This document shows, in pieces, positions 1 through 31,770 of a stretch of DNA of 64,000 nt. The notes below the pieces were generated by a model. That model ran no database searches and had not been told where the DNA came from. It was given only the letters and a program-made list of their open reading frames with translations. How positions within the stretch are numbered: the first letter of the stretch is position 1; every line of letters begins with the position of its first letter. The DNA lies in contig CALMRZ010000065.1 in NCBI GenBank assembly GCA_937872225.1, positions 7,007 through 71,006 on the forward strand, given 5' to 3'. Made by a program: the position numbers and the translations under genes. The DNA is from an uncultured Spirochaetota bacterium (GTDB lineage Bacteria; Spirochaetota; UBA4802; UBA5550).

Positions 1-826
1 GCTGAAAAATGCTTCGTAGTATTCATCATATTTTACTATTCTTGCATCCTGTAGAGCGGCGGTCATATCTTCAATTTTAGGCAGTATCCATTGATCGAAT
101 TTTATCTTCACGTTATATATTTTTTCCGAGGGTGAACGGAGCCCGTATTTCCCGATAAACGCTCCACTTATTGATTTCTTCAAAATATAATCAGGTGTGA
201 TTATTTTTTCATTGAATGTTTCATTCATTATCTCGATGTCCTTGATTTTGCTTAAAATAAAGTAATTTGCTTCTCCGGAGTCGGTAGGTTTTCCGTACAA
301 ATAGAAATTGTCATTGGTGAGAATGATGAAATATGGATGCACAATGAATGATTCCTGCTCGTCACTGTAAGAGCGAGTATAGTTGAATTGAATTTTCTTT
401 TTTTCGATTCTTGCGAAGTGTATTGCGGTAAATATCCAGAGACATGATTCCGGAGTCCTTTTTACCAGGCTGGCTATGGCCCGTTTCCTGTGAAAGTCTT
501 CTGATGTAAAAATTGAATGGCTGAAGGAGATCTCCTCCAGTACTGTTCTGTGTATTTTATTTATTTCCCATTCACTCCTGCCCTGCCCTATTGAAACAAG
601 GCCTCTAGATTTCAAAAACGTCCTGGCGTTTTTGGCCACAGCAGCAGGGTTAGGTGAAAAATCTTTAGATTCAGCATAGTCGCCGAACAGTGATTTATCT
701 TTCCAAAGGGTGTTGGTAATATTCTGTGCATTCCACTTGCTATTAGCACTGTTATTTTGCAGAAGGCCGAGAATATGTAGGCATCTCTTGAAGATGTTTA
801 TTTTTATATTGTAAACATTAGTCATG
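1..826 (-). CDS. WYL-domain transcriptional regulator (HTH-WYL-WCX type), partial; ATG at 824-826, 3' end runs past the window start
   Basis: Own minus-strand translation; absent from the ORF track because there is no stop in the window. It reads MTNVYNIKINIFKRCLHILGLL...SFIVHPYFIILTNDNFYLYGKPTDSGEANYFILSKIKDIEIMNETF...EKIYNVKIKFDQWILPKIEDM. The central aromatic-YL-hydrophobic motif followed by an FxLSKI strand matches the WYL signature, and the C-terminal part looks like a WCX domain. The sequence is AT-rich. Confidence 0.5.
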
Positions 827-872
827 ATACACCCCCCGCTTCTATATTCTCAAAAATACACGAAACAATCAT

Positions 873-894
873 TCTACTTATAACTTTAAGTTAG
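873..894. promoter_or_regulatory. Nested palindrome ATAACTTTAAGTTAGAAGTTAT (inner AACTTtAAGTT) about 45 bp upstream of the WYL regulator start; candidate autoregulatory operator
   Basis: Inverted repeat read directly in the sequence, lying between the WYL start at 826 and the end of the DnaA-like gene at 942. Confidence 0.3.
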
Positions 895-941
895 AAGTTA
901 TGATGTATATTTCAACTGAATAATTTTGATCTTGGATGAAT

Positions 942-1529
942 TTATTGTATTTCTATAATTTGGCCCCGATTGATACGGGATTTAAGCTTTTTGTTGAAAC
1001 TTGTATATTTTTTTGGATGAAATAATCCTGAAACAACAATCATTTTGCCCTTATTATACAAGTCGTTAATGACATGACATACTTCAGTCTGAGTCTCTTC
1101 TTTATCCGTCAAATCGTCAAAATCATCAAGTAACAACATATCAAGATTAAAGTATTGATTAACAAAATCGTCCCCCGTCCTTTCCCTAATCGATTGGATG
1201 AAATCATGTACGAATTTGTAAGTTGGTATGTATATGATTCTATTCTTAGGAATTTCATTGATTAATGCATGATATGTGGAAATGAGCAAATGTGTTTTCC
1301 CTGAACCAGTCCTCCCATATAAATACATTATATTTGGTCCGGTCCATGAATTAGAAGCTAATTGGGAGCACATCTTGAACGCCTTTTTATTTCCTGGTCT
1401 TACATCAAATGTTTTAAAATTATAAATATTATTAAATTGTATTCTATTCGTTTTCATTGAATCAGCCCAATTGACTATTGAGGATAATATTGATACTAAT
1501 TTGAAATCAATAAAATGCATGTGACTCAA
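942..1529 (-). CDS. Stand-alone DnaA/Hda-like AAA+ ATPase (DnaA domain III only, no DNA-binding domain IV)
   Basis: Walker A is LYGRTGSGKTHLL and Walker B is LLLDDFDDL. The spacing and the C-terminal GKMIVVSG...LKSRINRGQIIEI resemble the sensor/box region of DnaA domain III and Hda. The protein is 195 aa and AT-rich. Confidence 0.6.
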   Translation of the reverse strand: MSHMHFIDFKLVSILSSIVNWADSMKTNRIQFNNIYNFKTFDVRPGNKKAFKMCSQLASNSWTGPNIMYLYGRTGSGKTHLLISTYHALINEIPKNRIIYIPTYKFVHDFIQSIRERTGDDFVNQYFNLDMLLLDDFDDLTDKEETQTEVCHVINDLYNKGKMIVVSGLFHPKKYTSFNKKLKSRINRGQIIEIQ

Positions 1530-1563
1530 AGTTAGATGTAATTAGAAAATAAATTAATATATT

Positions 1564-1669
1564 TGACATAACAATGTCAATAATGCATTCTAATATTTAA
1601 ATAATATTTTAAAGAGTTGGAGCCTTAATATTAAAAAGTAAAATTCATTGAGATAAAACAATAGTCTCA
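1564..1669. promoter_or_regulatory. Divergent promoter region with two palindromes: TTGACAtaacaaTGTCAA (1564-1580) and TGAGAtaaaacaatagTCTCA (1649-1669)
   Basis: Inverted repeats read directly. They lie between the minus-strand ATPase gene and the plus-strand 1672 gene, and the first includes a TTGACA -35-like hexamer. Confidence 0.25.
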
Positions 1670-1671
1670 AT

Positions 1672-2295
1672 TTGAGGTATTATATGTATTCTGATAAAAT
1701 AAAACTGCTTCCATGGGAAGGCTCAAATTATTTAGAACAAAATCCTAAAATACTAATTCTTGGCTTATCAATTTATGATAAGAAAAAAAGTAAACATGTT
1801 GTACAAGAATATATTGAGGGTTTAATAAATGATGACTGGAACTACCCATTCTTTACAAAAATTCAAAATATATTTTCTAATCCAAATCATTGGGATGAAA
1901 TTACACCAGAAAGATATGCCCTTAATAAAAAGCTCTTCTGGGATGATGTATGTTTTTATGAATATATTCAGGAACGAATGGACAATCCCAAACAGAAAGT
2001 ACCAGCAAAATATTGGGAAAACTCGAAAGGAGCATTCAAAGAAATATTGCAGAAACTTAAACCTGATATCGTAATTGCCTTAGGATACGAAATGTATATG
2101 AACTTACCTCAAGAAGGTTCAGAAGGGATTCTAATTAAGCATGGCAACAACATAATGGAGACATGGAAATATAATATTTCAGGTAACGATACTTATGTCT
2201 GCCAGGTTCAACATCCTTCTTCGGTTGGTTTTAAACAAGATATATGGATAAAGCTATTTGAAGTTTTTTTAAAAAAATTTAGTAAATTGAAATAA
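1672..2295 (+). CDS. Hypothetical protein, possibly a UDG-fold (uracil-DNA glycosylase superfamily-like) protein lacking the canonical GEAPG motif
   Basis: A beta-strand-like KILILGLSIYD lies near the N-terminus, DIVIALGYEMY sits mid-protein, and QVQHPSSVGF lies near the C-terminus. Spacing and order resemble UDG family motifs 1 and 2 (HPS). This is a weak call from pattern only. Confidence 0.35.
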   Translation: MRYYMYSDKIKLLPWEGSNYLEQNPKILILGLSIYDKKKSKHVVQEYIEGLINDDWNYPFFTKIQNIFSNPNHWDEITPERYALNKKLFWDDVCFYEYIQERMDNPKQKVPAKYWENSKGAFKEILQKLKPDIVIALGYEMYMNLPQEGSEGILIKHGNNIMETWKYNISGNDTYVCQVQHPSSVGFKQDIWIKLFEVFLKKFSKLK

Positions 2296-2369
2296 TACAA
2301 GAGTAACTAGCTCATAGAGCAATAAAACACACTTTAATTTTATATTTTATAATTTATCATGGAGGGCTT

Positions 2370-2621
2370 ATGGGAAATTATTATTGCGAATATTGCGGGG
2401 CAAAAGATACGAATATTCATCATTTAACATCTGGCCCATGCCAATATCATCCCAATGGCCCACTCAAAGGGAATCATAAACTTTATGAAGGAAGTGAAAA
2501 AACAAAATATTTTTGTAAATATTGTGGTGCCTCAGATCCCAGTCTCCATCATTTAACATCTGGTCCATGCCAAAAACACCCCAAAGGGGCTTTAAAGGGT
2601 TACCATTCTCCGGCATTATAA
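2370..2621 (+). CDS. Small protein with two tandem ~38-aa Cys/His repeats (C-x2-C-x9-HH-x5-C-x2-H), putative zinc-binding
   Basis: The two repeats are YCEYCGAKDTNIHHLTSGPCQYHPNGPLKGNH and FCKYCGASDPSLHHLTSGPCQKHPKGALKGYH. A GGAGG-like RBS (ggaggg) lies 6 nt upstream of the ATG. Confidence 0.5.
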   Translation: MGNYYCEYCGAKDTNIHHLTSGPCQYHPNGPLKGNHKLYEGSEKTKYFCKYCGASDPSLHHLTSGPCQKHPKGALKGYHSPAL

Positions 2622-2694
2622 AGTTTCAAAGGTACTGTCGTCGGATCCTGTCTTATGGACCCCAGTGAAGGGAGATGATAAGAAAAGACTTCAA

Positions 2695-3009
2695 TTATTG
2701 ATCGTATCCTGCCGTTAATAGCCACTCACCGCTTTGAAGATGAGTAAACATTTGTCCTTTTCTAGGACCCATCGTACAATCATATTTAATAAAACATCTG
2801 GAACAGATGCAGCCCCATGCATTCTTTTCACCATCCAGGCATGCGTCCAGCATAAGCCGTTTATTATTGAACGAAGCTCCGCACAGATCGCATGAATGGG
2901 AGTGTCCGGCGAAAATGATCTCTTCTTCTTGTAGAAGATTCTCATGCGCTATAAGTTGAAGCTCGAATTCATCCTGGGGCTCACAGAAAGGTGTATATGT
3001 TTTCATCAT
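2695..3009 (-). CDS. Cys-rich hypothetical protein (104 aa)
   Basis: The ORF carries multiple C-x2-C pairs (HSHSCDLCG, CICSRC); I could not assign a family. Confidence 0.4.
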   Translation of the reverse strand: MMKTYTPFCEPQDEFELQLIAHENLLQEEEIIFAGHSHSCDLCGASFNNKRLMLDACLDGEKNAWGCICSRCFIKYDCTMGPRKGQMFTHLQSGEWLLTAGYDQ

Positions 3010-3091
3010 ACCATCAATTCTCCTTAAACAACTAGCTTAATAGAAAGTATAGAATGTACCATGACAAATAGTGTCACATCGCATTAATTTT

Positions 3092-3544
3092 TCATCTGGA
3101 AGATCCCTTCACAAGAAAACGATCAAGCTGATTGGCGAAAGCCTGGCGGTCTTTCTGTCTGAAAGAGGAAGGCCCGCCCGTGTCCATTCCGCTGTTCCTG
3201 AGAAGGTCCATTAAATCGCGCGTGGCAAGGCGGTCCTTGATGTTTTCCGGTGTATAAAGATCGCCCCGGGGATTGAGCACGAAACCGCCTTTGGCGATCA
3301 CACGGTCCGCAAGGGGCAAATCAGCGGAAATGACAAGGTCATTAACCTCCACCATTTCAACAATGCGGTCATCCGCCACGTCAGGACCGGCCGAAACTTC
3401 AATACATGAAATATACGCCGAGCCCGGTACGATCAGGCACTGATTTGCAACAAGCACAAGGGGAACATGAACGCGCTCGGCCGCACGATACAGTATTTCT
3501 TTTACAACGACCGGGCATGAATCCGCATCCACAAGTATCCGCAT
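3092..3544 (-). CDS. YaiI/UPF0178 (DUF188) family protein
   Basis: The N-terminus [13 protein letters not shown] matches the characteristic MxIWVDADACP start of the YaiI family. GC-rich, unlike its neighbours. TAATG overlap with the upstream RNase H gene. Confidence 0.7.
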
Positions 3545-4110
3545 TAAACGCCTCTTTTAATCTCTTCCATCCATGATCGGAGGGCCTTCCTGACTTCCCT
3601 GTCGACGATGGAAAATATCCGATGAACAGTGTCATGCGAGGCGACACGGGAATGCCCCTCGACCTTGATAACGTTCATGTTCAGTTCATCATATAATGAA
3701 TATAATTTCCGGTATAATGACGCGTTCTTTATCTCGGTTTTTGTTTTCTTGCTGATGTAATTCTTGTTCTCCAGTCCGGATCTTCTTCGCGATAAATCCG
3801 CGACGCATTGGGAATCCGTGTACACTGACAATTCCCAATGGCGGGAACCGGTTGCTTTTTGATAATCCTCGAGCGCCCATACAATCGTACGAATTTCCAT
3901 TTGAGTTGAACCGGCGCCCGTACATCTGCGCAGCACCAACCGCCCGATTATATCCGCTTTATCAATACTGTCGGGACCGGCTTCCAGGAGCGCGGCAGGC
4001 AGAAAAAGATATCCCCCAACGCCGCGCTTGAGTTGTGAATTCACGCTTGCATCCGTGAAAAGAACATCACCTCTCACCAGAGAGTTTTCTTTCTTAGCCA
4101 TTTCAATCAC
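3544..4110 (-). CDS. RNase H (type 1) domain protein
   Basis: DEDD-type motifs in order: TDAS (Asp), [10 protein letters not shown] (Glu), YTDSQ (Asp), KVEGHS...HD. 188 aa. Translationally coupled to yaiI. Confidence 0.65.
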
Positions 4111-4516
4111 CCGTAAATGTAAACCATATCAAACAATTCTATTATATAATATTCAATGTCAATTACATCTTGATTTCAGAGCGATAATGAGAACCCGCGG
4201 GAAGCGGGATTCTTACTTCTGTCATTTACAAGTGGATTTCTGCCCCGCCTCCACTCTGATCAAGCATTGGCAGCATTTCACCTATTGCCGGAGAAGAGCA
4301 AAGTGTTGCGGATTTTTAAAACACGACCGTTGTGAAGTATAAATGACAATTCAAAATGATTTTTCGAAAAAGTGTAAAATTAAGCTAATTTATTAAAACC
4401 TCGAAATACTAATAAAATATAGCCATTGGGTTCTAGGCATCACCCTGACTCAATGGCAAGCGATAGAAGATGATTTTGAATATATCTTCTAAAATTTTAT
4501 TTTAAGGAGGTTTCTT

Positions 4517-4789
4517 ATGAAACCCTATAAATCAATTTTTAATACCAGCAGCAATACTCGACGATTTACCAGAGTATCAAGGCATCACAAACAACGCGAA
4601 AGTATGAATAGAAAACCAATCATACCGCCGAGATATATTCCACTAACGGAACGTCTCGGTGAGCAAGTAGAAGAAAAGCACGTTACTCCGGTTGTACAAA
4701 ATGTCTTTGTTTTCAATTTTAATGGCGGAGAAAACATTGAGGATGTACTAACCGGAATTCTGAAGTGTATTAAACAGGCAGCACTTTGA
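4517..4789 (+). CDS. Hypothetical protein (90 aa)
   Basis: A strong RBS AAGGAGG lies 7 nt upstream of the ATG, and the terminator hairpin follows. AT-rich. Confidence 0.5.
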   Translation: MKPYKSIFNTSSNTRRFTRVSRHHKQRESMNRKPIIPPRYIPLTERLGEQVEEKHVTPVVQNVFVFNFNGGENIEDVLTGILKCIKQAAL

Positions 4790-4796
4790 TGAAAAC

Positions 4797-4846
4797 TAGA
4801 ACTAAGATTTCAGGCAATTACAGTATTTCTGAAATCTTAGTTCTTT
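4797..4846 (+). terminator. Rho-independent terminator-like hairpin
   Basis: A 14-bp perfect stem AACTAAGATTTCAG/CTGAAATCTTAGTT with a 15-nt loop, followed by TTTATAATTTT. Confidence 0.5.
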
Positions 4847-4912
4847 ATAATTTTCCAAAGAGAATATCTCTAAGGATTACTAATAATTAAACAACTCTGG
4901 GAGGAAGATACC

Positions 4913-5710
4913 ATGTCCGGAATGAGTATTGATGATCGAACCTTAGTCAGATTCTTTTATAAATCAAAAAAGAATTTTATGGCTGAGATGCAGGGGAAAA
5001 TGAAACCTGAACTAATGGATCAAGCTATTAATATGTTTTTTTCACCTAAAAGAAAGAAGTTTACTGACCAGGAGAAAGAGGAGCGAAAAAGACGTATTTT
5101 GAACCAAGTTAGTCGGATAAATCGGGAATTTGGCATAAGTAAAAATTCCATAAAGATAAACCAAAAATCCCAAGACCAAGTTGACCTGCTTGTACGAGAA
5201 TCAGAGTTTTCAAAGAACAGGAAAGACAAACTCAGAATCTTTTTAATAGAATTAATTCGCTGGCGAAAATATTTTGAGAGTCTTACCTACGAACAGCTGA
5301 GGGCCATGGAGGGGATATACTGGGACGTTACAGTTCATGCCCTTAATGGTCTCACTCCCCTGCCATCAACCCTTTTAGGTCGCTGGGTATCCGGTGATGT
5401 GCCAGCAAGAAAGCCTGCTGATGCGTTTATGAACGATATCATAGCAAAAATAAAAAATGAAGATAAGAAGTTATTATTCATGGACGCCTATTACCTTGAT
5501 AAAACCGGAAAAAAGTATGTCCTTAAAAAGTCTGTTACAGAAGAACAAAAATCTGAGATGCGAAAAATCATGAACGAAATCAGTTATAGCAATAAAAGCG
5601 GTACAAAATATATCGATTTCCTAAAATACCTGATTGATAAAAAGGTAGTTGAGTTAAAAGTCCAATATTCAACGCTTGGGAAATGCAAATACTATAAAAT
5701 TAATATATAA
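4913..5710 (+). CDS. Hypothetical protein (265 aa), Lys/Glu-rich
   Basis: A GGGAGGAAG RBS precedes the ATG. No recognisable motif. AT-rich. Confidence 0.5.
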   Translation: MSGMSIDDRTLVRFFYKSKKNFMAEMQGKMKPELMDQAINMFFSPKRKKFTDQEKEERKRRILNQVSRINREFGISKNSIKINQKSQDQVDLLVRESEFSKNRKDKLRIFLIELIRWRKYFESLTYEQLRAMEGIYWDVTVHALNGLTPLPSTLLGRWVSGDVPARKPADAFMNDIIAKIKNEDKKLLFMDAYYLDKTGKKYVLKKSVTEEQKSEMRKIMNEISYSNKSGTKYIDFLKYLIDKKVVELKVQYSTLGKCKYYKINI

Positions 5711-5805
5711 TCTATACATAACTGCATAAATGTATTTATTTCTGGGGAAACATAATTGGAGAAAAAACAGCATTTTCAATACCCCAGAATTCTAAATGCC
5801 CACTT

Positions 5806-6002
5806 CCACCATCCAGATCATGAAATCCAGTAGGATATCATCAATCAATTGGTTCGAATACTGTCTTCCCGTGGGAGCATGGGCGCTTTTTCGAACTCCG
5901 GGAAGCGCCTTTTTATTTTCCGACCATTGTTGTTGCAATTATTGACAAAATGGTCGGTTCGGATAATGTCTTCCCGCAGCATTACGATAAGACTCGAACT
6001 CC
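5806..6002. repeat. Conserved intergenic repeat, copy 1 (~197 bp): 3' conserved block, terminator hairpin GGGCGCTTTTTCGAACTCCGGGAAGCGCC+T-run, then TTGACA-16-TAATGT promoter
   Basis: About 90% identical to 6705-6902. Contains an internal direct repeat GGTTCG(A/G)ATA(A/C)TGTCTTCCCG. The promoter elements are at 5942-5969. Confidence 0.7.
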
Positions 6003-6081
6003 ACAAACTACACTTAGAATAATTTATAGAAATCAAGATTTTTCTCTTGATTATTGTAACCCATTGGGTTACATTAATTTT

Positions 6082-6360
6082 GTGATAAAGAGTTTTAAAC
6101 ACAAAGGGCTGGAACAATTCTTTGATACTGGCAGCAAAAAAGGAATCCAGCCCGACCATGCATCGAAACTCGAACGTATTCTGGACAGGCTGGCAGCTGC
6201 CAAAAAACCGAAAGACATGAACCTGCCAGGTTATAAATTACATGTGTTATCCGGCAATAAGGCCGGTACCTGGGCAGTGAGCATCAGCGGTAATTGGAGA
6301 GTGACATTTAAATTTGAAGGTGAAGATGTGATAGTCGTTGATTATATTGACTATCATTGA
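6082..6360 (+). CDS. higB: HigB toxin (RelE/ParE superfamily mRNA interferase), GTG start
   Basis: (V)IKSFKHKGLEQFF...GNWRVTFKFEGEDVIVVDYIDYH aligns end-to-end with HigB (MIKSFKHKGL...ANWRITFQF...YEDYH). The ORF-track start at 5950 reads through the repeat and is rejected. Confidence 0.85.
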   Translation: MIKSFKHKGLEQFFDTGSKKGIQPDHASKLERILDRLAAAKKPKDMNLPGYKLHVLSGNKAGTWAVSISGNWRVTFKFEGEDVIVVDYIDYH

Positions 6361-6380
6361 AATCAACAAGGATTAACATC

Positions 6381-6680
6381 ATGAATATAACAAAAAGAAA
6401 ACCTGTGCATCCGGGGATCGTACTTCTTGAAGACGTGATAAAACCCCTCAATCTGACAATTACCAAGGCGTCTGAATGTATGGGTATATCCAGAAAAACA
6501 CTTTCAGAATTGGTGCATGGCCATTGTACGCTGACCCCCGAAATGGCCGTGCGGATTGGCGAAGCCACAGGTACCACCCCGGAAAGCTGGCTGGAAATGC
6601 AAAACAGGCTTTCTCTATGGGAAGCCAAACAGCATAAACCCCGAGTCAAACCATTGGCTGATATGTGTTGTGAAGCATGA
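6381..6680 (+). CDS. higA: HigA antitoxin (XRE-family HTH)
   Basis: PVHPGIVLLEDVIKPLNLTITKASECMGISRKTLSELVHGHCTLTPEMAVRIG...WLEMQNRLSLWEA matches HigA. An AGGA RBS lies 7 nt upstream of the ATG at 6381. The ORF-track start at 6357 is a TTG overlapping the higB stop. Confidence 0.85.
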   Translation: MNITKRKPVHPGIVLLEDVIKPLNLTITKASECMGISRKTLSELVHGHCTLTPEMAVRIGEATGTTPESWLEMQNRLSLWEAKQHKPRVKPLADMCCEA

Positions 6681-6704
6681 TAGATTTTAATCCTGTTTAC
6701 TGCC

Positions 6705-6902
6705 CCACCATCCAGATCATGAAATCCAGCAGGATATAATCAATCAGCTGGTTCGAATACTGTCTTCCCGTGGGAGCATGAGGCGCTTTTCGAAATCCGG
6801 GAAGCGCCTTTTTTATTTTCCGACCATTATTGTAGCGATTATTGACAAAATGGTTGGTTCGAATACTGTCTTCCCGCTGCATTACGATAAGACCCGAACT
6901 CC
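6705..6902. repeat. Conserved intergenic repeat, copy 2 (~198 bp): terminator hairpin GGCGCTTTTCGAAATCCGGGAAGCGCC+T-run, then TTGACA-16-TACTGT promoter
   Basis: Begins 25 bp after the higA stop. Promoter at 6842-6869, about 115 nt upstream of the mqsR ATG, the same spacing as copy 1 to the higB GTG. Confidence 0.7.
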
Positions 6903-6983
6903 CTTAAAGGCATTCATATCAATCATTTTTCTATTGACCATTCTGTATATTTTTAATATATTGACATTGTAAAGATATTATAA

Positions 6984-7286
6984 ATGGATAAATTTAAGGC
7001 ACATTATTCGCTGTTGCGGGTTAAGGCCCTGGTCAAAGAGGGCCGATATCGAATTACCGCTGCAGCTATTAAAAGCGGTTTTGAGGATTTTTCACTATTA
7101 TCAGAAGATCTTGCCGAATGTGAGCTCAGGCTTGAAGCATCGGACTTATACAAGTCAATGACGAGCCGTTTTGATGCAACCTTGTAGCAGGACGTTTATC
7201 ATACAAGGATTATTACCAAAATAGCCTATATTAAACTGCAAATTCTTGATGATGAAACGGTGATAATCTCATTCAAGGAGAAATGA
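6984..7286 (+). pseudogene. mqsR: mqsR toxin homologue interrupted by an in-frame TAG at 7185-7187 (conserved Trp codon TGG->TAG)
   Basis: MDKFKAHYSLLRVKALVKEGRYRITAAAIKSG...SDLYKSMTSRFDATL*QDVYHTRIITKIAYIKLQILDDETVIISFKEK matches MqsR, with the stop where MqsR has TIWQDVY. The reading frame continues intact to a TGA overlapping the mqsA ATG. Confidence 0.75.
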
Positions 7287-7287
7287 C

Positions 7288-7713
7288 ATGAAAGAAAAAA
7301 AATGGGTTGATTGCCCTTCCTGCGGGTCTAAAGGAACCATGAAATACAAAAAAGGCATGTCGGAAACATACCGCAACCCCGGATATGAACCGATAACCGT
7401 GACCAACCTTGACGGATATTTCTGCTCTGCCTGCGGTGAAGGGATATACAGCATTAAATCGAGTAAAATCATAACATCGAAGCTGACTGATGAAAAAGCG
7501 CGCCAGGACTCAAAACGGGTCGTCGCCTCTGACCTCATTGATGTTGATTCGGTTGCGAAGAAACTTTCGGTTACCAGGCAGCGAGTGCACCAGATGATGG
7601 ATGAAGGTAAAATATCATATGTGTATGTCGGGAAGCACAGATTCCCAGTCAGGGATAATGAAAGCTCGTATAAGAAGTTAAAGAAAAGAATACATACGAT
7701 AGCACATAATTGA
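7288..7713 (+). CDS. mqsA: MqsA-like antitoxin (N-terminal zinc-ribbon CPSCG...CSACG plus C-terminal XRE HTH)
   Basis: The zinc-ribbon plus HTH domain order matches MqsA, and the start overlaps the mqsR frame end (TGACATG). Confidence 0.75.
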   Translation: MKEKKWVDCPSCGSKGTMKYKKGMSETYRNPGYEPITVTNLDGYFCSACGEGIYSIKSSKIITSKLTDEKARQDSKRVVASDLIDVDSVAKKLSVTRQRVHQMMDEGKISYVYVGKHRFPVRDNESSYKKLKKRIHTIAHN

Positions 7714-7726
7714 TTATTTTATACTT

Positions 7727-7840
7727 CCACCGCCCAAATTATAAAATCCAGCAGGATATCATCCAAGAGCTGGTTCGATAACTGTACTCCCTTGGGAGCA
7801 GAATAGGACGTTTTAGAACTCACGGTAACGTGCTTTTTGT
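7727..7840. repeat. Conserved intergenic repeat, copy 3 (partial, more diverged): left block plus terminator-like hairpin GGACGTTTtagaactcacggtAACGTG + T-run
   Basis: Begins 14 bp after the mqsA stop. Shares AAATCCAGCAGGATAT..TGGTTCGA.A.CTGT..CCC.TGGGAGCA with copies 1 and 2 and lacks the promoter half. Confidence 0.55.
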
Positions 7841-8069
7841 TTATATGGGAACGCTTCGTGGTTCCGGTAAGGGCGGGATCATTATCCGTCAGCCCAGCTC
7901 CCGGTTGAATTTCTATCTGCTCATTCATGGCCATTATAGGCTCTTTCATCAAAAAGATGTAAGGCTTTTTCCATTGGATTCCCACAGTCTCTTTATTGAC
8001 AGCGATGCGCTCAGTCTTCTCATTTATTATCCGGGACTTTTTATCGTAATCAGCCGACGGCGGCGCACC

Positions 8070-10850
8070 CTACCGGGGATGCAGTACCATCAGGCATTTT
8101 ATTGTCAACTGATCCGGGAAATAATCATTCCTTGCCGCCCATTCATTGCGCGATTTTTCCACCCATCGGTCGAGCTCAAACGGCTCCATGTAATCGAGAC
8201 AGGTGTCCTCATCCGGTGCAGACCTGATGACCTGCATTATTTCATCCACATGATTGCTGTTAAGAACAATCCCCCCCTGTCTGTTAAAAATTGCGGGATA
8301 CAGTCTCGATTTGCTTGAAAATAAAACATACAAGCTCACGTCTTTTACTGCCGCCTGTTTAAAGCTCCTGATTCCGTCGGGAAGCCTTCTGTATTTTTTC
8401 AGCTCATGGTCCTGGAGGCCCGCCAGGTCATCAATGAAATTACTGGTGCTCAGATGGTCGGCATTTTCTATAAACCGCATGACCTCGTCGAGTTCAAGGT
8501 CCGCGTCGCCAAAATTATGCATGCATCGCGCAAGCTCGGTCATCTCGAAGGCCTCGCCTTTTTCCTCCACCATTACCGGGATGTCGGTGAAAGACCGCAT
8601 CTCCCTGTTTTTGGCCACAAGTCGGTTCTGCCAGTTAAGGGCGTGATGGATATCGCGATTGCCCATCGTTGACGGAATGAGATTGTACACGTATATCTCC
8701 CTCGGCACCTTCCATGGCCGCAGTATTCTTCCCATTCGCTGCGCCAGCACCAGGACGGTCCACGGCAGATCGAAATTGATCATTACCGAGGCGTCCTGGA
8801 AGTTGAACCCTTCGGACATGGCCGTGGTCGCCACGAGAATATCGATGGCACTCTCGTCGGTCTCCGCTCCATCGTCATCGCCCTGTATGTCAATGCTGTT
8901 GGCGACAGGGGCGAATCTCCTTATCAATTCCTCAATGTCTTCACTTTTATCCACGGTGTGCGCCACGGACTTCCCGGGAACAAGCCTTCCAATAATTTCG
9001 GTGATGTATTTGGCAGTCTCAATATAAAAGCAAAATATCACAATTTTCTTATCAACATGGGTTTTGACAATATCCATCAACCTGGCGATCTTATCCTCGA
9101 TGGCGGATGAATGTGCGGGATCGATATACGGAGCGATTTCCAGGCGCATCTCCGATGTTACCTGTGTAAGTTTGTCCTGGTTTTCAAAACGCATCTTCCT
9201 GAACCCCTCCTCCCTTTCCATCTTCGCGAGGAGTTCATCGGCCTGTTTCATGGAGGAGCAGAACTGGTGAACGACCCTCGCTTCGAAAAGCGGGTCGCGG
9301 TCGCCCGAGAGATAATCTTCGAAAAGAGAACCGTTGTCTTCATTGGCCGATCTGCGGTTGAGGAGCCCGCTTTTAAGAAGCCTTACCATCATGCCGTCGC
9401 ATTCGTTTCGGTATTCCATGTTCTTCATGTGTATGACCCTCGGGAAATACCTTTTCTGGTCGCCCGAGAAGAGGACAAAGCGCTCGTTCGCCGGATCCCT
9501 GTAGCTGAAGTGGGTCACCACCGTGGGCGATGTGAGGACTACTCCGGGGGAAATTTCCGAAAGCTCTCCGGCATTGATCACTTGCCAGGGGATGCCATGG
9601 TTTTCTCCCATGAGCGTTTTTTCCGTTCCACGAGGAGGAAGCAGGGCCAGCTGGTTATTGATATCATCAATTCCCCTGCTGTAGGGGGTCGCTGTCATGA
9701 GCAGCACTTTGGCCTGCTTGCTCACGGCGTCGATTATCCTTCTGTTGCGCAGCCGTATTTCGTTGCCTTCTTGGGAATTCCTCAAGTGGTGGCTCTCGTC
9801 AAGTATAATGATGGTTTTACCGTTCGCCCTTCGGAGTTCCCCCTCGAGCTCGGCGATATCACGGTAGTGCCGCCAATCCTCGACCGAAAGAATGTAATAT
9901 GAGAATTCGATGCTTGACAGGCGTGCAGCGCGCATCGTTCGCTGCCACATTCGTTTCAGCCCCGCTGGACACAAAACAATAGCTGCATCTATCTGGTTCT
10001 TCATCCGTAAGTATGCAACGGCATGAGCCGCCATAATGGTCTTTCCAAGGCCGGTGGAAGCCACAAGCATCGCGCCCCCGAATTCCTCGATATTACGAAG
10101 AATACGCGAGACCACAGGACGCTGATACCCTGCCAGCTGAGGCAACGTGCCCGTCTCTTCGTCGTCGGGAAGTCCGTACAGTTCGATGAGTGAACGAATA
10201 TATACATCAAAGGGTCGGTAAATTTTGAGCCATTCATCAAGACGATCGAGCAGCTCTTCGGCGATGCAGACGGCCTTATCGTAATAATAATCGAACTTTT
10301 CAACAAAAAATAAAACATCGTCGGTATCATAAATTGCAATACCCGCTTCACGGCTCGCAACAAGTCCATGCCTGGTAAAATTGGCCGAGGTGACCACGGC
10401 GGCCCGCTCATCGGCGATGTACAGCTTGGCGTGATGATATATATAGCGCGGGTCCATTGAGGTAGGGCCCTCATTGACCGAAACATTGACCAGGAACCTG
10501 CGGCTCCTGACAGCATCGCGAAGCTCCTCCATCGCTCTTGTCCTGTCATCTAATGGGGTCGTGGCGAGCGATTCAAAAAATTCCGAGATTACCTCGCTTA
10601 TCCTGTCTGCGCCCGTGTCCGGACGGCCCAACAGGAGCCTGACTTCCTTGCCTCGAAGCACCTCCCTGAGGCACTCATATCCCGCCGGCTCGAAATAGGC
10701 TGTTGCGATACGCACAACCGACGCGTCTTCAATCGTAGACCGTATAACGCGTAATGCCGCGCCCCCTCCTGAAAAGAAACGGGATAAGGATGCATTATTA
10801 TTTTGAGGAATATTCATAGTTCTATTTGCCCTGTGCATCTTTGTTGTCAA
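8070..10850 (-). CDS. Phospholipase-D-family (HKD) nuclease fused to an SNF2-family helicase (926 aa), with a ~200-aa C-terminal tail of unknown function
   Basis: N-terminal HxK-x4-D motif HHAKLYIADERAAVVTSANFT. SNF2_N features: QRPVVSRIL..MLVASTGLGKTIMAA (Walker A), ILDESHHLRN (DExH), LLMTATP. Helicase-C features: VATTAMSEGFNFQDASVMINFDLPW..QRMGRILR. Ends in TAG. GC-rich. Confidence 0.8.
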   Translation of the reverse strand: MTTKMHRANRTMNIPQNNNASLSRFFSGGGAALRVIRSTIEDASVVRIATAYFEPAGYECLREVLRGKEVRLLLGRPDTGADRISEVISEFFESLATTPLDDRTRAMEELRDAVRSRRFLVNVSVNEGPTSMDPRYIYHHAKLYIADERAAVVTSANFTRHGLVASREAGIAIYDTDDVLFFVEKFDYYYDKAVCIAEELLDRLDEWLKIYRPFDVYIRSLIELYGLPDDEETGTLPQLAGYQRPVVSRILRNIEEFGGAMLVASTGLGKTIMAAHAVAYLRMKNQIDAAIVLCPAGLKRMWQRTMRAARLSSIEFSYYILSVEDWRHYRDIAELEGELRRANGKTIIILDESHHLRNSQEGNEIRLRNRRIIDAVSKQAKVLLMTATPYSRGIDDINNQLALLPPRGTEKTLMGENHGIPWQVINAGELSEISPGVVLTSPTVVTHFSYRDPANERFVLFSGDQKRYFPRVIHMKNMEYRNECDGMMVRLLKSGLLNRRSANEDNGSLFEDYLSGDRDPLFEARVVHQFCSSMKQADELLAKMEREEGFRKMRFENQDKLTQVTSEMRLEIAPYIDPAHSSAIEDKIARLMDIVKTHVDKKIVIFCFYIETAKYITEIIGRLVPGKSVAHTVDKSEDIEELIRRFAPVANSIDIQGDDDGAETDESAIDILVATTAMSEGFNFQDASVMINFDLPWTVLVLAQRMGRILRPWKVPREIYVYNLIPSTMGNRDIHHALNWQNRLVAKNREMRSFTDIPVMVEEKGEAFEMTELARCMHNFGDADLELDEVMRFIENADHLSTSNFIDDLAGLQDHELKKYRRLPDGIRSFKQAAVKDVSLYVLFSSKSRLYPAIFNRQGGIVLNSNHVDEIMQVIRSAPDEDTCLDYMEPFELDRWVEKSRNEWAARNDYFPDQLTIKCLMVLHPR

Positions 10851-11093
10851 GAATTATCCTTATCAAGCGATTCCAGCAATAAGACCGATACCTCTTTTCC
10901 ACGGGAAGCTTAATAAGTTCCGGGCATTCTGTGGATACGGAGAGAAAATGAGAATTACATAACAGTACTTACCCAAAGCACATGCCTCGCCCTGGCATGA
11001 CCCACGTAGAGCAATTCCTCAGCAAGGAAGCGCGCCTTTTCTCCAGGGCCCGTTTGCAGAAGACACACTGTTTTTCAGACATGTTCCGATCTT

Positions 11094-12755
11094 CTATTCA
11101 TGCAAGAGTTGTTCCATCTCCGTGAGTTTATGCTTGACTTCATCAATACGGCCGGCGGTATCGGGGGTTCGCTCCATGAGGGATTCAACTAATTTAAGCT
11201 CGTTGTTGACATACAAGAGGGTCTGCTCCATCATGCGGTCCATTTCCCTGTAAATCTTCCCCGTTAAGTCCGAAACAAGGCGGTGGATATTTTTGTCCAC
11301 TTCACCGGGGATCTGACCGGCGAAAAAACGGGCGAAAATCTTCCTGAAGATAAACATGGGGAACAGGAACCAGAACATGTCGAGATGGAAATCAAAAGCC
11401 CTGCTTATTGAGATATCCGGTCGGCGTATATCGAACACAAGTTCTCCCCATTCTTCGGAATGCATGGAAATTCCGAGAGACTTGCTTATGTTTTCATTAA
11501 GCCGCTGGCGGAAAGACTTGAGATAAAAAGACAAGTGCTTCTTTGCGCCGGTTATAATATACGAGGAACGATCCTCTTCCAACAACAGCTTTTTTATTTC
11601 CGATGAGAGGGAATCTTTTATCCATGCTTCATATTGTTTCGTAAACGAGTAAAGCGTGCCTTTCCACCCGGGAAATGATTGTAAAAAATCAGCGGTCAGT
11701 CTCTCTATAATGGGTTTAATATACTCCTTCATATATTCGAACAGCGTCTCACGCGTTTCGTTTTTATAGCTGTCAAGAATGAACAGAAGTTCACGGCGGA
11801 CATAGTGGGCGTTCATATGCTCTTCAAAGACGGCCTTTTTGAGTTTTTCAAGCTCGCCGCGTTCGACCTTGGATGCCTGTCTCGCAATTTCAAGGTATGA
11901 AATACATGATTTTATCAGCGTGGATGCCTTATGGCGCACGATAGTATTGCGAACTTCGTCAACACGAACAAGCAGAGGACCAATGATCGAGGTTTCAATT
12001 TTATCAACATGCTTCCGCGTGTCCTTAACGGTAGAAAAGGGACACAGGGGAAACGAGCGCTCAAGGTTTGTATTTAACGCGTTTTCCGTAAAAGATACAA
12101 TATCCGCAACCTGCTTTTCAGAATACAGGTCAATCTTTGTAATTATTATATAAACTTCCGGGGAATAACGGAGGACATCCTCCAAGAGACGCATTTCGAC
12201 CTCTGAAATCGGACGTTCGGCGCTCATCACGAAAAGAACGGCGCCAGTCTCGGGAAACCAGCCAAGGGCCGTTTCAGTGTTGTGCTTCCATACGCTCCCG
12301 ATCCCGGGCGTATCGATGAGCCGGGCGCCGCCCCATTTTCTGAGTTCCGTGAGCTCGACATCGACTATGGCCACACCCTTCTCGTTTTCAGGATTGCCGG
12401 ATTCGGATACATATTCGTCGAGATCTTCAATTGTTGTTTCACGCACGCCGCCGCCGTTGAAGGTCACGAGCGCACGGTTGTTTTCCCCCGGAGAAAGCCT
12501 GGTAATGACTGACGTCACGGGAATACTGCCCACGGGAAGGACCGCCGTTCCGGTGAGGGCGTTCAGGAACGAACTCTTGCCGGCTTTGAATTGTCCGAGA
12601 ACGGCTATGTCGAGGTAACGCTGTTCGTTGACGAAACGCAGCACGGAACCGGCGACCTTTTCAATGCTTTGAAGGTTAAATTCAGTGCTTACAGCTTCAA
12701 CGACATGAATCGCGCTTATTGCGCGTTCGCGTAAAGAAACCGCATTTTCAATCAT
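11094..12755 (-). CDS. Dynamin-family large GTPase (bacterial dynamin-like / LeoA-like)
   Basis: G1 P-loop GQFKAGKSSFLNALTG, G3 DTPG, G4 TKID. The rest is long helical stalk-like sequence. A GGAGG RBS and 13-nt gap couple it to the upstream small membrane gene. Confidence 0.8.
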   Translation of the reverse strand: MIENAVSLRERAISAIHVVEAVSTEFNLQSIEKVAGSVLRFVNEQRYLDIAVLGQFKAGKSSFLNALTGTAVLPVGSIPVTSVITRLSPGENNRALVTFNGGGVRETTIEDLDEYVSESGNPENEKGVAIVDVELTELRKWGGARLIDTPGIGSVWKHNTETALGWFPETGAVLFVMSAERPISEVEMRLLEDVLRYSPEVYIIITKIDLYSEKQVADIVSFTENALNTNLERSFPLCPFSTVKDTRKHVDKIETSIIGPLLVRVDEVRNTIVRHKASTLIKSCISYLEIARQASKVERGELEKLKKAVFEEHMNAHYVRRELLFILDSYKNETRETLFEYMKEYIKPIIERLTADFLQSFPGWKGTLYSFTKQYEAWIKDSLSSEIKKLLLEEDRSSYIITGAKKHLSFYLKSFRQRLNENISKSLGISMHSEEWGELVFDIRRPDISISRAFDFHLDMFWFLFPMFIFRKIFARFFAGQIPGEVDKNIHRLVSDLTGKIYREMDRMMEQTLLYVNNELKLVESLMERTPDTAGRIDEVKHKLTEMEQLLHE

Positions 12756-12768
12756 GTTTATGACCTCC

Positions 12769-12987
12769 TTATTGCCCTCTGAATAGAAACAACGCGACCC
12801 CCGAGCAGATGATCGCCATGATAAAGGCCAATACGGCCATTTCTACGGCAAAAGCGGTTTTCTTTTTTCTGCTTATTCCCGGAAAATGACTCCAGCCGCT
12901 GTAAGCATTCATAAATGCCATGACTGACCCAATTATGCCGAAAGGGACGGCGAGAATCACGATTGCAAATATGACCCGCTTGTCCAT
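12769..12987 (-). CDS. Small two-helix membrane protein (72 aa), first gene of the dynamin / PLD-SNF2 module
   Basis: Two hydrophobic segments (VIFAIVILAVPFGIIGSVMAF and FAVEMAVLAFIMAIICSGVALFLF) separated by a basic loop. Confidence 0.5.
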   Translation of the reverse strand: MDKRVIFAIVILAVPFGIIGSVMAFMNAYSGWSHFPGISRKKKTAFAVEMAVLAFIMAIICSGVALFLFRGQ

Positions 12988-13104
12988 GTGCGCATCCTCA
13001 TTGCTTCAGCTTGGTCGCGAACACGGCTGATGCGCCGAGTTCACGCTCTATTTCAAGGAGACGGCTGTATTGTGCGATCAGCTCGCTCCCGCAGGCCGAT
13101 CCAG

Positions 13105-13365
13105 TCATGGTCTGTCCGCCTCACATAATGTGGTCAAAGCCCCGAGAAAGCCGGTAACGAAAAAAAGACGAAAGGACGGATTTATCATGTTTTTTTCGCT
13201 GGCGAGAGAGAATATCGAGTTTATCAAAAAACAGCCGGAAAGATTTACGAACAATGCGCCTATGGGGAAACGATCGGTGAATAATTTGTCGGCCAGCAAT
13301 GAGATTAAATAACGGGAAACCGCCCCGATGCTACCTCCAGCCGCTACGAAAAGTATCTTTTCCAA
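13105..13365 (-). pseudogene. crcB: crcB (FluC fluoride channel) remnant: N-terminal 86 codons only; all three frames hit stops where the last ~40 residues should be
   Basis: (M)EKILFVAAGGSIGAVSRYLIS...FPIGALFVNLSGCFLI...VTGFLGALTT matches FluC through TM3 and then ...LCEADRP*. TTG start with a GGAGGAG RBS. Sits directly downstream of a fluoride riboswitch. Confidence 0.6.
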
Positions 13366-13398
13366 ATCTCCTCCATAAATATATATCCATAGTATTCA

Positions 13399-13450
13399 TG
13401 CAGGAGTCATCAGCCATCGGGCAGTTAACGGTGAACTCCATCACCTTTGG
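13399..13450 (-). ncRNA. Fluoride riboswitch (crcB RNA motif) aptamer
   Basis: The minus strand reads AAAGGUGAUGGAGUUCACCGUUAACUGCCCGAUGGCUGAUGACUCCUGCA, containing GGnGAUGGnGUUCnCC, AACUGCC and CUGAUGAnUCCUnC of the consensus. The 3' CUCCUGCAU can pair with the downstream AUGGAGGAG covering the RBS, a translational ON-switch design. Confidence 0.7.
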
Positions 13451-13540
13451 CACGGTGATCATTACATATTCAGGTTAACACAAAAACATAATAGACATTT
13501 ATATGTCAAGAACATATTCATTACGTGACCACTGTTTGCA

Positions 13541-30502: not shown

Positions 30503-31144
30503 TTATTTATTGGCCGATATGGTCCAGCTTACAACCTCGATGGCGCCTTTCGCATAGGGGGCGCTTTCCTCGAGTATTGTGACATCCGAAAAACCGGCCG
30601 CCCTGACACCTTCAAGGTACTCATCGCGGGTCACTGACCCGGCCCAGCATTCGGCGACCGCCTGCGGGTCGTTCCGGTAGCGATCGGGGACAGGGGCCGT
30701 TGAATAGATATCGCTCACAATGAAGCGGCCGCCCTTCTTCATGACGCGGTATATCTCCTTCCACACGCGCCTCTTGTCCGAGGCGTGGTTGATGGTGCAG
30801 TTGGATATGACCACGTCGGCAACATCATCGTTCAGCGCGATCTTTTCCAGTCCAGATTTCACGAAAGAAACATTTGTTACTCCGAATTTTTTTGCCGTGG
30901 CCCTTGCCTTTTCAAGCATGCCGTCGGAAACATCTATGCCATACACAAACCCCTCCGGGCCGACGATATCCGCCATGCGGAGGGCGTCCGCGCCCCTGCC
31001 GCTGCCCAGGTCCACGCAGGTTTCACCGGGCCTCACCGCCGCGCGCTCCAGGGCTCCGCCGCAGGAAAGGCAGCAGTTCGACTCCGCGAGGTTGCTGTAC
31101 CGCGCATTAATTGTGTCGAGTTGTATCGGCGTCGACGTCCCCAT
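30503..31144 (-). CDS. arsM: Arsenite S-adenosylmethionine methyltransferase
   Basis: The conserved Cys cluster NCCLSCGG lies upstream of the SAM motif VDLGSGRGAD. ISNCTIN...DKRRVWKEIYRVMKKGGRFIVSD closely parallels ArsM (ISNCVINL..DK.RVL.EAFRVLKPGGRFAVSD). Confidence 0.75.
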   Translation of the reverse strand: MGTSTPIQLDTINARYSNLAESNCCLSCGGALERAAVRPGETCVDLGSGRGADALRMADIVGPEGFVYGIDVSDGMLEKARATAKKFGVTNVSFVKSGLEKIALNDDVADVVISNCTINHASDKRRVWKEIYRVMKKGGRFIVSDIYSTAPVPDRYRNDPQAVAECWAGSVTRDEYLEGVRAAGFSDVTILEESAPYAKGAIEVVSWTISANK

Positions 31145-31568
31145 TGTCGTCCTCCATGGCGAATATCAGGAGGCGCAGGGCCTTCTGTATGACGGCAAAT
31201 TCAGTCTCTGACATTCGTGCCCTTATTTTGTCTTCACATTGTTTCCTGAATACGGCGGTATCATGGTTCACCGAAATTCCTTCTTCCGTCAGCGATACCC
31301 GGCTGTAGCGCCTGTCATGTTCATCAGCTTCCCTGCGCAAAAATCCTCTGGTAGCAAGTTTGTCTATAATCCTGCTCATGCGCGATGGCGAGAGGGTGTT
31401 TCTCTTTGCCAGGTCTATAATGGGTACCGATTCCCCCGGATTGAGGGACGCAAGAACCTGTAGTTCCTTTGCGGTGAGACTGTTATCCTCGCCGCTGCTA
31501 TTGTTCAGGTGGCAGCACTGCTCATTGAGCATCATTATTGTCTCTACTATATTATATTGCATATCCAA
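31107..31568 (-). CDS. MarR-family transcriptional regulator
   Basis: The winged-helix region LTAKELQVLASL...RRYSRVSLTEEG is typical of MarR. It overlaps arsM by 38 nt, suggesting an operon. Confidence 0.65.
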   Translation of the reverse strand: MDMQYNIVETIMMLNEQCCHLNNSSGEDNSLTAKELQVLASLNPGESVPIIDLAKRNTLSPSRMSRIIDKLATRGFLRREADEHDRRYSRVSLTEEGISVNHDTAVFRKQCEDKIRARMSETEFAVIQKALRLLIFAMEDDNGDVDADTTRHN

Positions 31569-31727
31569 TTGCCCCTGTCAACTGTTGCTAATGGCAAATA
31601 TATATAATGCGAGCATGAATGTCAATACATTTTTTTAGTATTTTATAAAATTCTATTATTTATCAAGGTTTTTAAAATTTATTTAAGGATTTTAGCGAAA
31701 ACACAAATAATTGCAGGTATATAAAGA

Positions 31728-31770
31728 TGCAGGAGGTCCATGCTCAAAATAGCATGCTGGACCTCCTGCG
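31728..31770. other. Long near-perfect hairpin GCAGGAGGTCCATGCTcaaaatAGCATGCTGGACCTCCTGC in an AT-rich 490-bp intergenic region, flanked by two ~35-bp imperfect direct repeats (about 31634-31668 and 31928-31962)
   Basis: Read directly. Roughly 16 bp of stem. The direct repeats are TTTTTAG(T/A)ATTTTATAAA(A)TT(C/A)(T/C)T(A)TTTA(T/A)C. Confidence 0.4.

Follow-up and report, generated by a model that had tools for sequence, protein, structure and literature searches.

A strain-variable defence island at the tRNA-Asn gene of an uncultured Spirochaetota bacterium and its probable serine-recombinase integration module

Islands inserted at the 3' ends of tRNA genes (Islander/TIGER type) are strain-variable, keep their recombinases next to the tRNA, depart from the host in composition, form tandem arrays and bring defence cargo; they use tyrosine integrases and restore a tRNA segment tens of nucleotides long. 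SCCmec elements carry a ccrA/ccrB pair, target the 3' end of rlmH and build composite arrays with recombinase-less units and short direct repeats. Pipolins, defined by a primer-independent DNA polymerase of the PolB family, have a conserved core near their tRNA integration site and exchangeable defence cargo; two can lie side by side at one tRNA, and some use a large serine recombinase (PMC11551731). Here, we describe an element that resembles each of these in part, located in a 64,000-nucleotide stretch of DNA from an uncultured Spirochaetota bacterium (the window; contig CALMRZ010000065.1, positions 7,007 to 71,006). We put at roughly 80% the probability that window 1-5872 is the right end of an integrative defence island of at least 39.1 kb, sited at the 3' end of tRNA-Asn(GTT) by nadA, moved by serine recombinases and with a history of tandem insertion.

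With tRNA islands of the Islander/TIGER type, this element has in common its strain-variable presence, its tRNA 3'-end site, recombinases proximal to the tRNA (as seen in a sibling island), atypical composition, a tandem array and defence cargo; it differs in that its recombinases are of the large serine type and only 7 nt are common to both ends. The likeness to SCCmec comprises two adjacent large serine recombinases, a host-gene 3' end as the site, recombinase-less tandem units and CcrB as the best NCBIfam match, whereas the target is tRNA-Asn rather than rlmH, the host a spirochaete and the cargo defence rather than resistance. The first recombinase, a CcrB/XisF-like protein of 524 aa (E 4e-42), scores 144.5 bits against CcrB, compared with a cut-off of 900, and is not a member of the Ccr family; membership of the SCC type (ccrAB) was therefore rejected. 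Pipolins are similar in site, conserved core, exchangeable defence cargo and recurrent WYL and uracil-DNA glycosylase (UDG) genes, but no PolB family occurs among the Pfam matches of the window strain's island or of the sibling, and that assignment was rejected as well; the island has only a DnaE palm/finger fragment, in one cargo slot. As a tRNA-associated integrative defence island the element is of a known kind; its integration module is what is unusual.

Strain comparison and the ends of the island

We retrieved strain contexts via the dynamin-like protein encoded at 11094-12755, yielding ten genomic contexts that differ from the window on its right-hand side by 0-21 mismatches per 16 kb. 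In at least four empty-site contigs, from different samples and assemblers, identity to the window ends at 5873: to the right of this point 9 of 16,000 positions differ, and to the left the empty contigs read tRNA-Asn(GTT), nadA, RNase PH, SecA and further core genes. Two places retrieved later (L045 and L046) are repeats of two empty contigs already counted, and a further four places of similar kind were matched beyond those compared here. Since such near-identical contigs, which belong to the same species, have nothing of what the window shows left of 5873, its first 5872 positions (1-5872) form the right-hand end of an island that varies between strains. The heptanucleotide GGGAGCA makes up the last bases of tRNA-Asn and recurs at 5873-5879, the right junction. 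The segment 5806-5879, comprising the island's right end and this core, is the putative attR, as judged from the switch point of the empty sites, a repeat family (D1), alignment to the tRNA end and translation of the tail encoded there.

Two other contexts retain the gene for a 265-aa protein beside the junction and then carry different cargo left of about 4,930. By contrast with this variable side, the toxin-antitoxin pairs, a PLD-SNF2 helicase, the dynamin-like GTPase, a crcB fragment and a fluoride riboswitch are present with or without the island. An initial annotation of the window had drawn the island boundary at 8070 and had counted the toxin-antitoxin array among the contents; both placements give way to a junction at 5873-5879, since the genes to its right, toxin-antitoxin pairs included, are kept in strains with an empty site. 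Together, presence/absence polymorphism with a precise junction, the attachment core at both ends and the atypical composition identify the element as a genomic island.

The same annotation had correctly expected the island to run past the left window edge. Contigs identical to the window, found by exact-protein look-ups, add at least 33.2 kb and reach -33,237 in extended coordinates (0 being the base left of window position 1), with a GC content of 27-37% and two richer inlays. Several metagenome contigs end near window positions 4583 and 5927, the latter within the first of three repeats (see below); the contig breaks there and at -33,237 suggest multi-copy or strain-variable sequence at these places.

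A sibling island at the same site is fully assembled, spanning 35.0 kb end to end within one 372.8-kb contig (L044). The backbone common to siblings consists of genes for the 265-aa protein and for proteins of 90 and 104 aa, a WYL/WCX regulator, SSB, ADP-ribosylglycohydrolase, a second WYL protein, DUF2779, UvrD+PD-(D/E)XK, type III restriction-modification, HerA+NurA and a NERD helicase, and the 35.0-kb sibling has most of the backbone genes of the window's island. Compared with the window strain, this sibling shows 96% DNA identity from NurA to the NERD helicase, 89% for the 265-aa protein (89-95% across siblings) and 94% for SSB; in sibling islands generally, position-equivalent WYL/WCX regulators are only 29-33% identical. 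Siblings differ in the slots that separate the 104-aa gene from SSB, SSB from the glycohydrolase and DUF2779 from UvrD, and also at the left end. In L054, a more distant island, a WYL/WCX regulator, a UDG-type gene paired with a PAD_porph-fold gene (65-69% identity), SSB and DUF2779 (87%) are again present, interspersed with other cargo. The island thus varies in presence between strains and joins a common backbone to exchangeable slots, and its mosaic composition follows from the exchange of modules within a conserved scaffold. The AT-rich DNA that the initial annotation had taken for the island itself is one such cargo slot together with the backbone genes of the right end.

Recombinases, candidate attachment site and tandem relics

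In the 35.0-kb sibling, two tandem proteins with Pfam Resolvase and Recombinase domains, of 524 and 565 aa, are encoded adjoining tRNA-Asn, and an Rfam search of the 4.6 kb beside this gene returned the tRNA as the sole match. The 565-aa recombinase gene (L044 8046-9743; L052 848-2545) had been missed by the gene caller and accounts for an apparent 2-kb gene-free gap. The 524-aa recombinase lies 327 nt upstream of it in L044, and L052 has only the 3' end of the 524-aa gene. A search for tyrosine recombinases gave no Phage_integrase match among the called genes of the window part, the extension or the sibling island.

The last 18 codons of the 565-aa recombinase gene are the complement of tRNA-Asn, and because the gene runs into this complement we place attP within its 3' end. 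In occupied strains, the 265 nt after tRNA-Asn are the recombinase 3' end, of which an 84%-identical copy stands at window 7794-8058. Read on the minus strand, window 8058-7719 encodes ...VGIQWKKPYIFLMKEP...SSKTSYSAP followed by KGVQLSNQLLDDILLDFIIWAVEV and a stop codon, with the frame unbroken across the core; the intact integrated gene reads ...SSKTSYPAP followed by PVGLEPTTQWLTATCSTD and a stop codon. The Ala-Pro codons at this tail junction are the GGGAGCA core. The island right end at 5806-5872 (minus strand) and the second repeat encode the same type of tail, ...AP followed by TGRQYSNQLIDDILLDFMIWMVEVGI and a stop codon, and the tail codons of repeats 1 and 3 compare as 14 identical, 6 synonymous and 7 non-synonymous. 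On this basis, attB would read ...CCTACCGGGGGAGCATGGGCGCTTTTTCG..., attR ...CTGTCTTCCCGTGGGAGCATGGGCGC... and the predicted attP ...CTGTCTTCCCGTGGGAGCAGGATAGGACGTTTTCG.... From GGTTCGA to the core, the putative attP-type arm is 5 nt longer than its tRNA counterpart, which recalls the way in which large serine recombinases distinguish attP from attB.

These features can be combined in a model in which the two tandem large serine recombinases at the far end would insert and excise the island, the element's attachment site would form part of the 3'-terminal stretch of the second recombinase gene, and crossover would take place within GGGAGCA. Integration would then swap the last 24-26 residues of the enzyme for 18 residues read from the tRNA complement. 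According to PMC4383910, integrase genes lying across attP are known for Mx8 and SSV, both of which use tyrosine integrases; in the myxophage Mx8, the gene for IntP spans attP, and integration at a tRNA 3' end alters the C-terminus of its product (Tojo et al. 1996, as cited there). Mx8 differs from the present case in that its enzyme is the tyrosine recombinase of a phage, rather than a large serine recombinase of a non-phage island.

Three 200-nt repeats surround the toxin-antitoxin pairs, copy 2 being 89% identical to copy 1. The core GGGAGCA occurs at 5873, 6772 and 7794, in all three cases preceded by some 65 nt of conserved end sequence, and every repeat copy is composed of an element right end, GGGAGCA and sequence that is elsewhere found after the tRNA. 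The motif GGTTCGAATACTGTCTTCCCG is confined to 5851-6876 within the window. On the simplest reading, the three repeats would be successive attachment-site relics with GGGAGCA as their common core, separating four units, of which the newest (E4) would be the strain-variable island, up to 5872.

Unit E3 (5880-6778, plus strand) is a HigBA unit devoid of a recombinase, made up of a decayed left end with a terminator-like hairpin, higB (about 6082-6360), higA (about 6381-6680), the right-end repeat and the core at 6772-6778. HigB matches HigB-like_toxin (E 1e-20), HigA matches its NCBIfam equivalog model (96.4 bits), and the unit is found in both empty and occupied strains. Unit E2 (6779-7800, plus strand), likewise without a recombinase, consists of mqsR (6984-7286), mqsA (7288-7713), the right-end repeat and the core at 7794-7800. 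Here, mqsA is intact (MqsA_antitoxin, E 4e-9) and mqsR has an in-frame TAG at 7185-7187: a read-through MqsR covers positions 1-95 of 95 of Pfam MqsR_toxin (E 9e-20), the 67-aa open reading frame (ORF) only 1-61, and the toxin is probably inactivated. Since mqsR has this in-frame TAG, decay fits an order of age from E4 to E1. The oldest unit, E1, starts at 7801 and holds a large serine recombinase stub on the minus strand (7719-8058; about the last 113 codons, native tail uninterrupted), which includes the 265-nt copy of the recombinase 3' end noted above and whose intact homologue has the Pfam domains Resolvase and Recombinase.

Under the same model, repeated integration at one tRNA would have displaced older units rightwards, a process of tandem accretion, and these units would have decayed into the HigBA and MqsRA mini-units and the stub at 7719-8058. 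Another such remnant is probably the PLD-helicase/dynamin block, which runs up to the truncated crcB. The island would then serve as a platform for anti-phage genes, with the toxin-antitoxin pairs as stabilising relics.

Cargo of the island and competing explanations

From the window leftwards, GC content is 24-40% to about -8,300. Nine genes follow the WYL gene on the same strand and encode a 565-aa ankyrin-repeat protein, orphans of 230, 169, 116, 170 and 310 aa, a 419-aa DnaE fragment, a 180-aa protein and a PAD_porph-fold protein. The next block leftwards (45-51% GC) holds SSB, ADP-ribosylglycohydrolase, a 186-aa WYL protein and DUF2779, after which the DNA is AT-rich again and encodes two ThsB-type TIR proteins, PDC-M50A, UvrD+PD-(D/E)XK, type III restriction-modification, HerA+NurA, a NERD-UvrD helicase and a second HerA-like ATPase. 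In this extension PADLOC gave strong matches to type III restriction-modification (MTase_III, E 2e-168; REase_III, E 8e-191), ThsB-like TIR (E 5e-40 and 4e-84), the PDC-M50A membrane protein (E 4e-50), HerA and the NERD+UvrD helicase. By virtue of these matches, the initial annotation was right about defence-island membership as far as the larger element is concerned. The nearest known systems lie about 13 kb from the WYL-adjacent genes, and weak PADLOC matches were obtained for a 207-aa protein and for the 565-aa ankyrin protein (PDC-M72A, E 1e-4). Thoeris was considered and rejected: two ThsB-type TIR proteins and PDC-M50A are present, but there is no ThsA among the extension genes.

At the left window edge lie the 5' 275 of 317 codons of the WYL+WCX regulator gene (1-825, minus strand; Pfam WYL, E 1e-9), which stops 128 nt beyond the edge and was recovered at its full 317 aa from identical contigs. 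The complete protein contains PF13280 (WYL, 38.2 bits) and PF25583 (WCX, 32.2 bits, E 1.4e-7), both above the Pfam gathering cut-off, so that its earlier identification as a WYL regulator is confirmed; a profile of 6 relatives finds WYL-domain proteins in PDB at E 1e-3, across the WYL-WCX part. No helix-turn-helix family was matched at the N-terminus in Pfam or NCBIfam, where a motif, RxLHIxxLLQN, is kept among relatives. Regulators of the BrxR/CapW type are similar in having WYL followed by WCX, in their size of about 300 aa and in their location in defence islands, and differ from the present protein, which has no winged helix matched by Pfam or NCBIfam models, adjacent genes without a known defence system and a putative operator only. 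This candidate operator, which the initial annotation had proposed, is a palindrome at 880-901 (ATAACTT-N8-AAGTTAT, with TAACTT-T-AAGTTA nested in it), 55-76 nt upstream of the WYL start codon. The palindrome is indeed there, but a perfect arm of at least 7 nt arises in 12.9% of shuffles of the 116-nt spacer (826-941), and 7-nt-arm repeats occur at 0.22 per 116 nt in this AT-rich DNA; the palindrome does not exceed chance expectation, and a role as operator can only be suggested. The WYL/WCX protein would most likely be a ligand- or damage-responsive repressor of the nine co-directional genes behind it; as these genes match no known defence model, the gating of a defence system, also raised in the initial annotation, is conjectural.

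The adjoining gene (942-1529, minus strand) encodes a stand-alone DnaA/Hda-like AAA+ ATPase, as previously called, consisting of domain III only (Bac_DnaA, E 4.9e-38). It lacks the DNA-binding domain IV, covers model positions 100-267 of 437 of NCBIfam TIGR00362, far under the equivalog cut-off, and has an uncertain start (gene callers give 65-192 aa across assemblies). The 203-aa protein encoded at 1684-2295 (plus strand) belongs to a small orphan family of 18 homologue clusters with conserved GES and HPSS motifs and showed no sequence-level match in Pfam, NCBIfam or PDB. Its suspected UDG fold is borne out by structure prediction: for an AlphaFold2 model with a pLDDT of 93.3, all 45 Foldseek matches in PDB at E<=0.001 (45/45) are members of the UDG superfamily (family 4 UDG, UdgX, TDG and MUG; TM 0.41-0.57, probability 1.00). 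By eye, GES and HPSS look like UDG motifs A and B.

Next, at 2370-2621 (plus strand), an 83-aa Cys-rich protein contains two copies of a unit of about 43 aa (CxxC...HH...C; YCxYCGA...HHLTSGPCQxHPxGxLKGxH), the product of a tandem duplication (2375-2477 and 2504-2606, 73% DNA identity), and in Pfam it has only zinc-ribbon matches below threshold. The 104-aa Cys-rich protein (2695-3009, minus strand) is a backbone gene product, and two other island variants encode a counterpart of 50-51% identity in the corresponding place. Between it and the remaining backbone genes lies a GC-rich inlay (3010-4363, minus strand) with a YaiI/YqxD gene (3092-3544; DUF188, E 1.7e-45; NCBIfam YaiI, 176.6 bits against a cut-off of 139) and an RNase H-like gene (3544-4110; Pfam RNase_H, E 5e-10), the stop of the former overlapping the start of the latter. 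The inlay is an insertion relative to both sibling islands, whose homology resumes at 4364 and within the 104-aa gene. Beside the attachment site, the backbone genes for the 90-aa (4517-4789) and 265-aa (4913-5710) proteins, both on the plus strand, have 75-95% identical counterparts in two other variants. The 265-aa family comprises 8 clusters only; its protein has no Pfam, PHROG, PADLOC or PDB sequence match, and its AlphaFold2 model (pLDDT 70.8, mediocre) no fold match with E<1.

In the leftward part of the slot, the 419-aa "mini DnaE" (L002 886-2145, corresponding to window -6745 to -5486) comprises part of the palm and fingers only, without the PHP, beta-binding and OB parts. It keeps the aspartate pair of IDVD, whereas KLIG stands where MDFLG is aligned, at a position that we take to be the third catalytic aspartate. 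Among 1.8 billion representatives, it has one relative at 50% identity (495 aa) and several collinear ones of about 430-450 aa at ~30%. The relatives of the 180-aa protein are annotated as G:T/U-mismatch glycosylases; this UDG-type protein has no sequence similarity to the 203-aa one, and a metagenome scan for it gave no match. Its gene overlaps by 4 nt that of the PAD_porph-fold (agmatine/arginine deiminase-like) protein (L019 10001-11397, window -8225 to -6829), and the pair recurs in the more distant island (L054 10001-11414), beside SSB. The two genes may form a module acting on modified bases.

A more specific version of our interpretation joins these observations. In it, a ccrAB-like serine recombinase pair would have the tRNA-Asn 3' end as attB and its attP in the second gene, and the exchange of the conserved amphipathic tail (...NQLxDDILLDFxIW...) for a tRNA-encoded one would act as a built-in switch of direction or activity, while the WYL-headed AT-rich operon, with its ankyrin protein, mini DnaE with two of the three catalytic aspartates, UDG-type protein translationally coupled to an agmatine/arginine-deiminase-fold protein, and several orphans, would be a new anti-phage system. 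We consider this combination tentative, with the odds well against it.

Less probable still is that the AT-rich slot (about -8,300 to 4,900) is the element's own replication and maintenance module under the WYL regulator, as in pipolins and other self-replicating integrative elements. A Bac_DnaA AAA+ domain, the DnaE palm and finger protein with its IDVD pair, the adjoining SSB, the RNase H-like protein and two UDG-type proteins would all suit such a module, and UDG and WYL genes recur in pipolins, which likewise reside at tRNA genes with defence cargo (PMC11551731). However, the slot is absent from otherwise complete sibling islands and thus is not needed for upkeep of the element; the DnaE fragment has neither PHP, beta-binding nor OB parts and reads KLIG in place of MDFLG, the DnaA-like protein is without DNA-binding domain IV, and a primer-independent PolB is missing.

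That the element is a decayed prophage or phage satellite rather than a defence island appears very improbable. A phage-type element would fit the site-specific insertion at a tRNA gene, the serine integrases, the SSB gene and the AT-rich composition, and the DnaA-like protein and the DnaE fragment match PHROG families of helicase loaders and DNA polymerases, respectively. Across about 46 kb, however, the Pfam matches of the called genes include no capsid, terminase, portal, tail or lysis family, 50,697 phage records contain no DNA match, and the 265-aa and WYL families are without relatives in IMG/VR (2.9 million viral contigs). A plasmid origin was also rejected, as plasmid matches are gene-sized only (toxin-antitoxin higB and YaiI). 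Finally, toxin-antitoxin cassettes are typical of chromosomal integrons, and one-operon units of 0.9-1.0 kb between conserved repeats resemble such cassettes, but there is next to no chance that the AT-rich DNA belongs to an integron array, given that the window part, the extension and the sibling contain no tyrosine recombinase, the repeats can be read base for base as a recombinase 3' end, the core and sequence flanking the tRNA, their motif occurs nowhere else in the 64-kb window, and no repeat separates the genes to the left of 5872, which are distributed over both strands.

Surroundings of the island and its significance

The initial annotation had described the first 8 kb as AT-rich in a genome of about 60% GC, with a sharp edge at 8070. 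The AT-richness is borne out (positions 1-8070 have 38.6% GC, 300-nt windows there spanning 22.7%-53.7%, compared with 53.5% for 8071-64000), whereas the host value is not: 1-kb windows across 13121-64000 average 53.9% (standard deviation 4.9, minimum 40.1%), which places the background at about 54%. Rather than at a single edge, GC content declines in steps, from 53.9% right of 13.1 kb to 49.9% (8070-13120), 42.2% (5873-8069) and 35.4% (4111-5872), rising to 50.0% in the inlay at 3092-4110, as had been noted before, and falling to 34.0% at 1-3091; the strain-variable junction at 5873-5879 lies within this descent. Overall, 1-5872 has 37.2% GC and most of the leftward extension 27-37%. These data support the view that the AT-rich zone is horizontally acquired accessory DNA of mosaic composition and not one 8-kb unit. 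Other dips, to 42-47% GC, occur in the window at 31000-33000, 46000-47000 and 55000-56000.

To the right of the recombinase stub, the block 8070-13120 is present in ten of ten strain contexts. On its minus strand it encodes a PLD-nuclease+SNF2-type helicase (8070-10850; PLDc_2, ResIII and Helicase_C; PADLOC HKD+Snf2, E 2e-25), the dynamin-like GTPase (11094-12755; Dynamin_N, E 1e-24; LeoA, E 1e-11) and a 72-aa membrane protein (12769-12987), followed by a 36-aa ORF. Encoded side by side, the helicase and the LeoA-like GTPase may represent an old pair of defence genes that does not belong to the variable island. Upstream, also on the minus strand, a fluoride riboswitch (13394-13454; Rfam RF01734, 59.3 bits) precedes a crcB fragment (13105-13365) that comprises residues 1-79 of about 124. 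Using four CrcB relatives as tblastn queries, we obtained a match at 13129-13365 that ends at residue 75-79, and no C-terminal half in the window, the island or the nadA side; the ORFs that follow the fragment (36 aa, 72-aa membrane protein and dynamin-like GTPase) bear no relation to crcB. In the GTDB species set the fragment matched only distant crcB loci of Firmicutes. All strain contexts seen, empty strains included, share the truncation. The initial annotation had suggested that the missing half might lie at the far boundary of the island, but that boundary is tRNA-Asn beside nadA, and since the fragment occurs in empty strains and the locus holds no second half, a crcB gene split by the island is not supported.

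Several points weigh against our interpretation of the island as a serine-recombinase-moved defence element with a tandem history. Its core is just 7 nt long, although such shortness is in keeping with serine recombinases, and both the exact crossover point and the part that each of the two enzymes would play are putative. Neither a circular form nor an attP junction was observed; the one metagenome scan for such a junction matched only repeat 3 of the same species and speaks neither for nor against excision. The window strain's own island is unassembled at its left end, every contig stopping at -33,237 within the end of a GC-rich ORF, and for this reason its recombinase genes are predicted from the siblings. 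Serine integrases are, according to PMC4383910, not known to use tRNA genes as targets, and of 297 serine-integrase elements, 14 were predicted at t(m)RNA genes, with the remark that "experimental proof will be required" (PMC7192596). As for the cargo, the proteins of window 1-5872 and of the nine genes behind the WYL gene gave no clear PADLOC match, only generic WYL-domain and P-loop ATPase ones, so that a defence role of the AT-rich slot itself is suggested by its neighbourhood. Lastly, both the assignment of 8070-13120 to the rest of E1 and a far-end deletion in E1 that would have removed the crcB 3' half are conjecture.

As an AT-rich accessory island, the element is ordinary; its value lies in the integration module and in the uncharted cargo slot. 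With about 15 genes that match no known defence model beside a WYL/WCX regulator, the slot is a sensible target in a search for new defence functions. The locus is a natural case in which empty, occupied and swapped states occur in one population, for a large-serine-recombinase element that apparently targets a tRNA gene, a pairing that published surveys call unreported until they predicted it. Its attachment site seemingly lies inside the recombinase gene, such that integration would rewrite the tail of the enzyme, in a class of recombinases that serve as genome-engineering tools.

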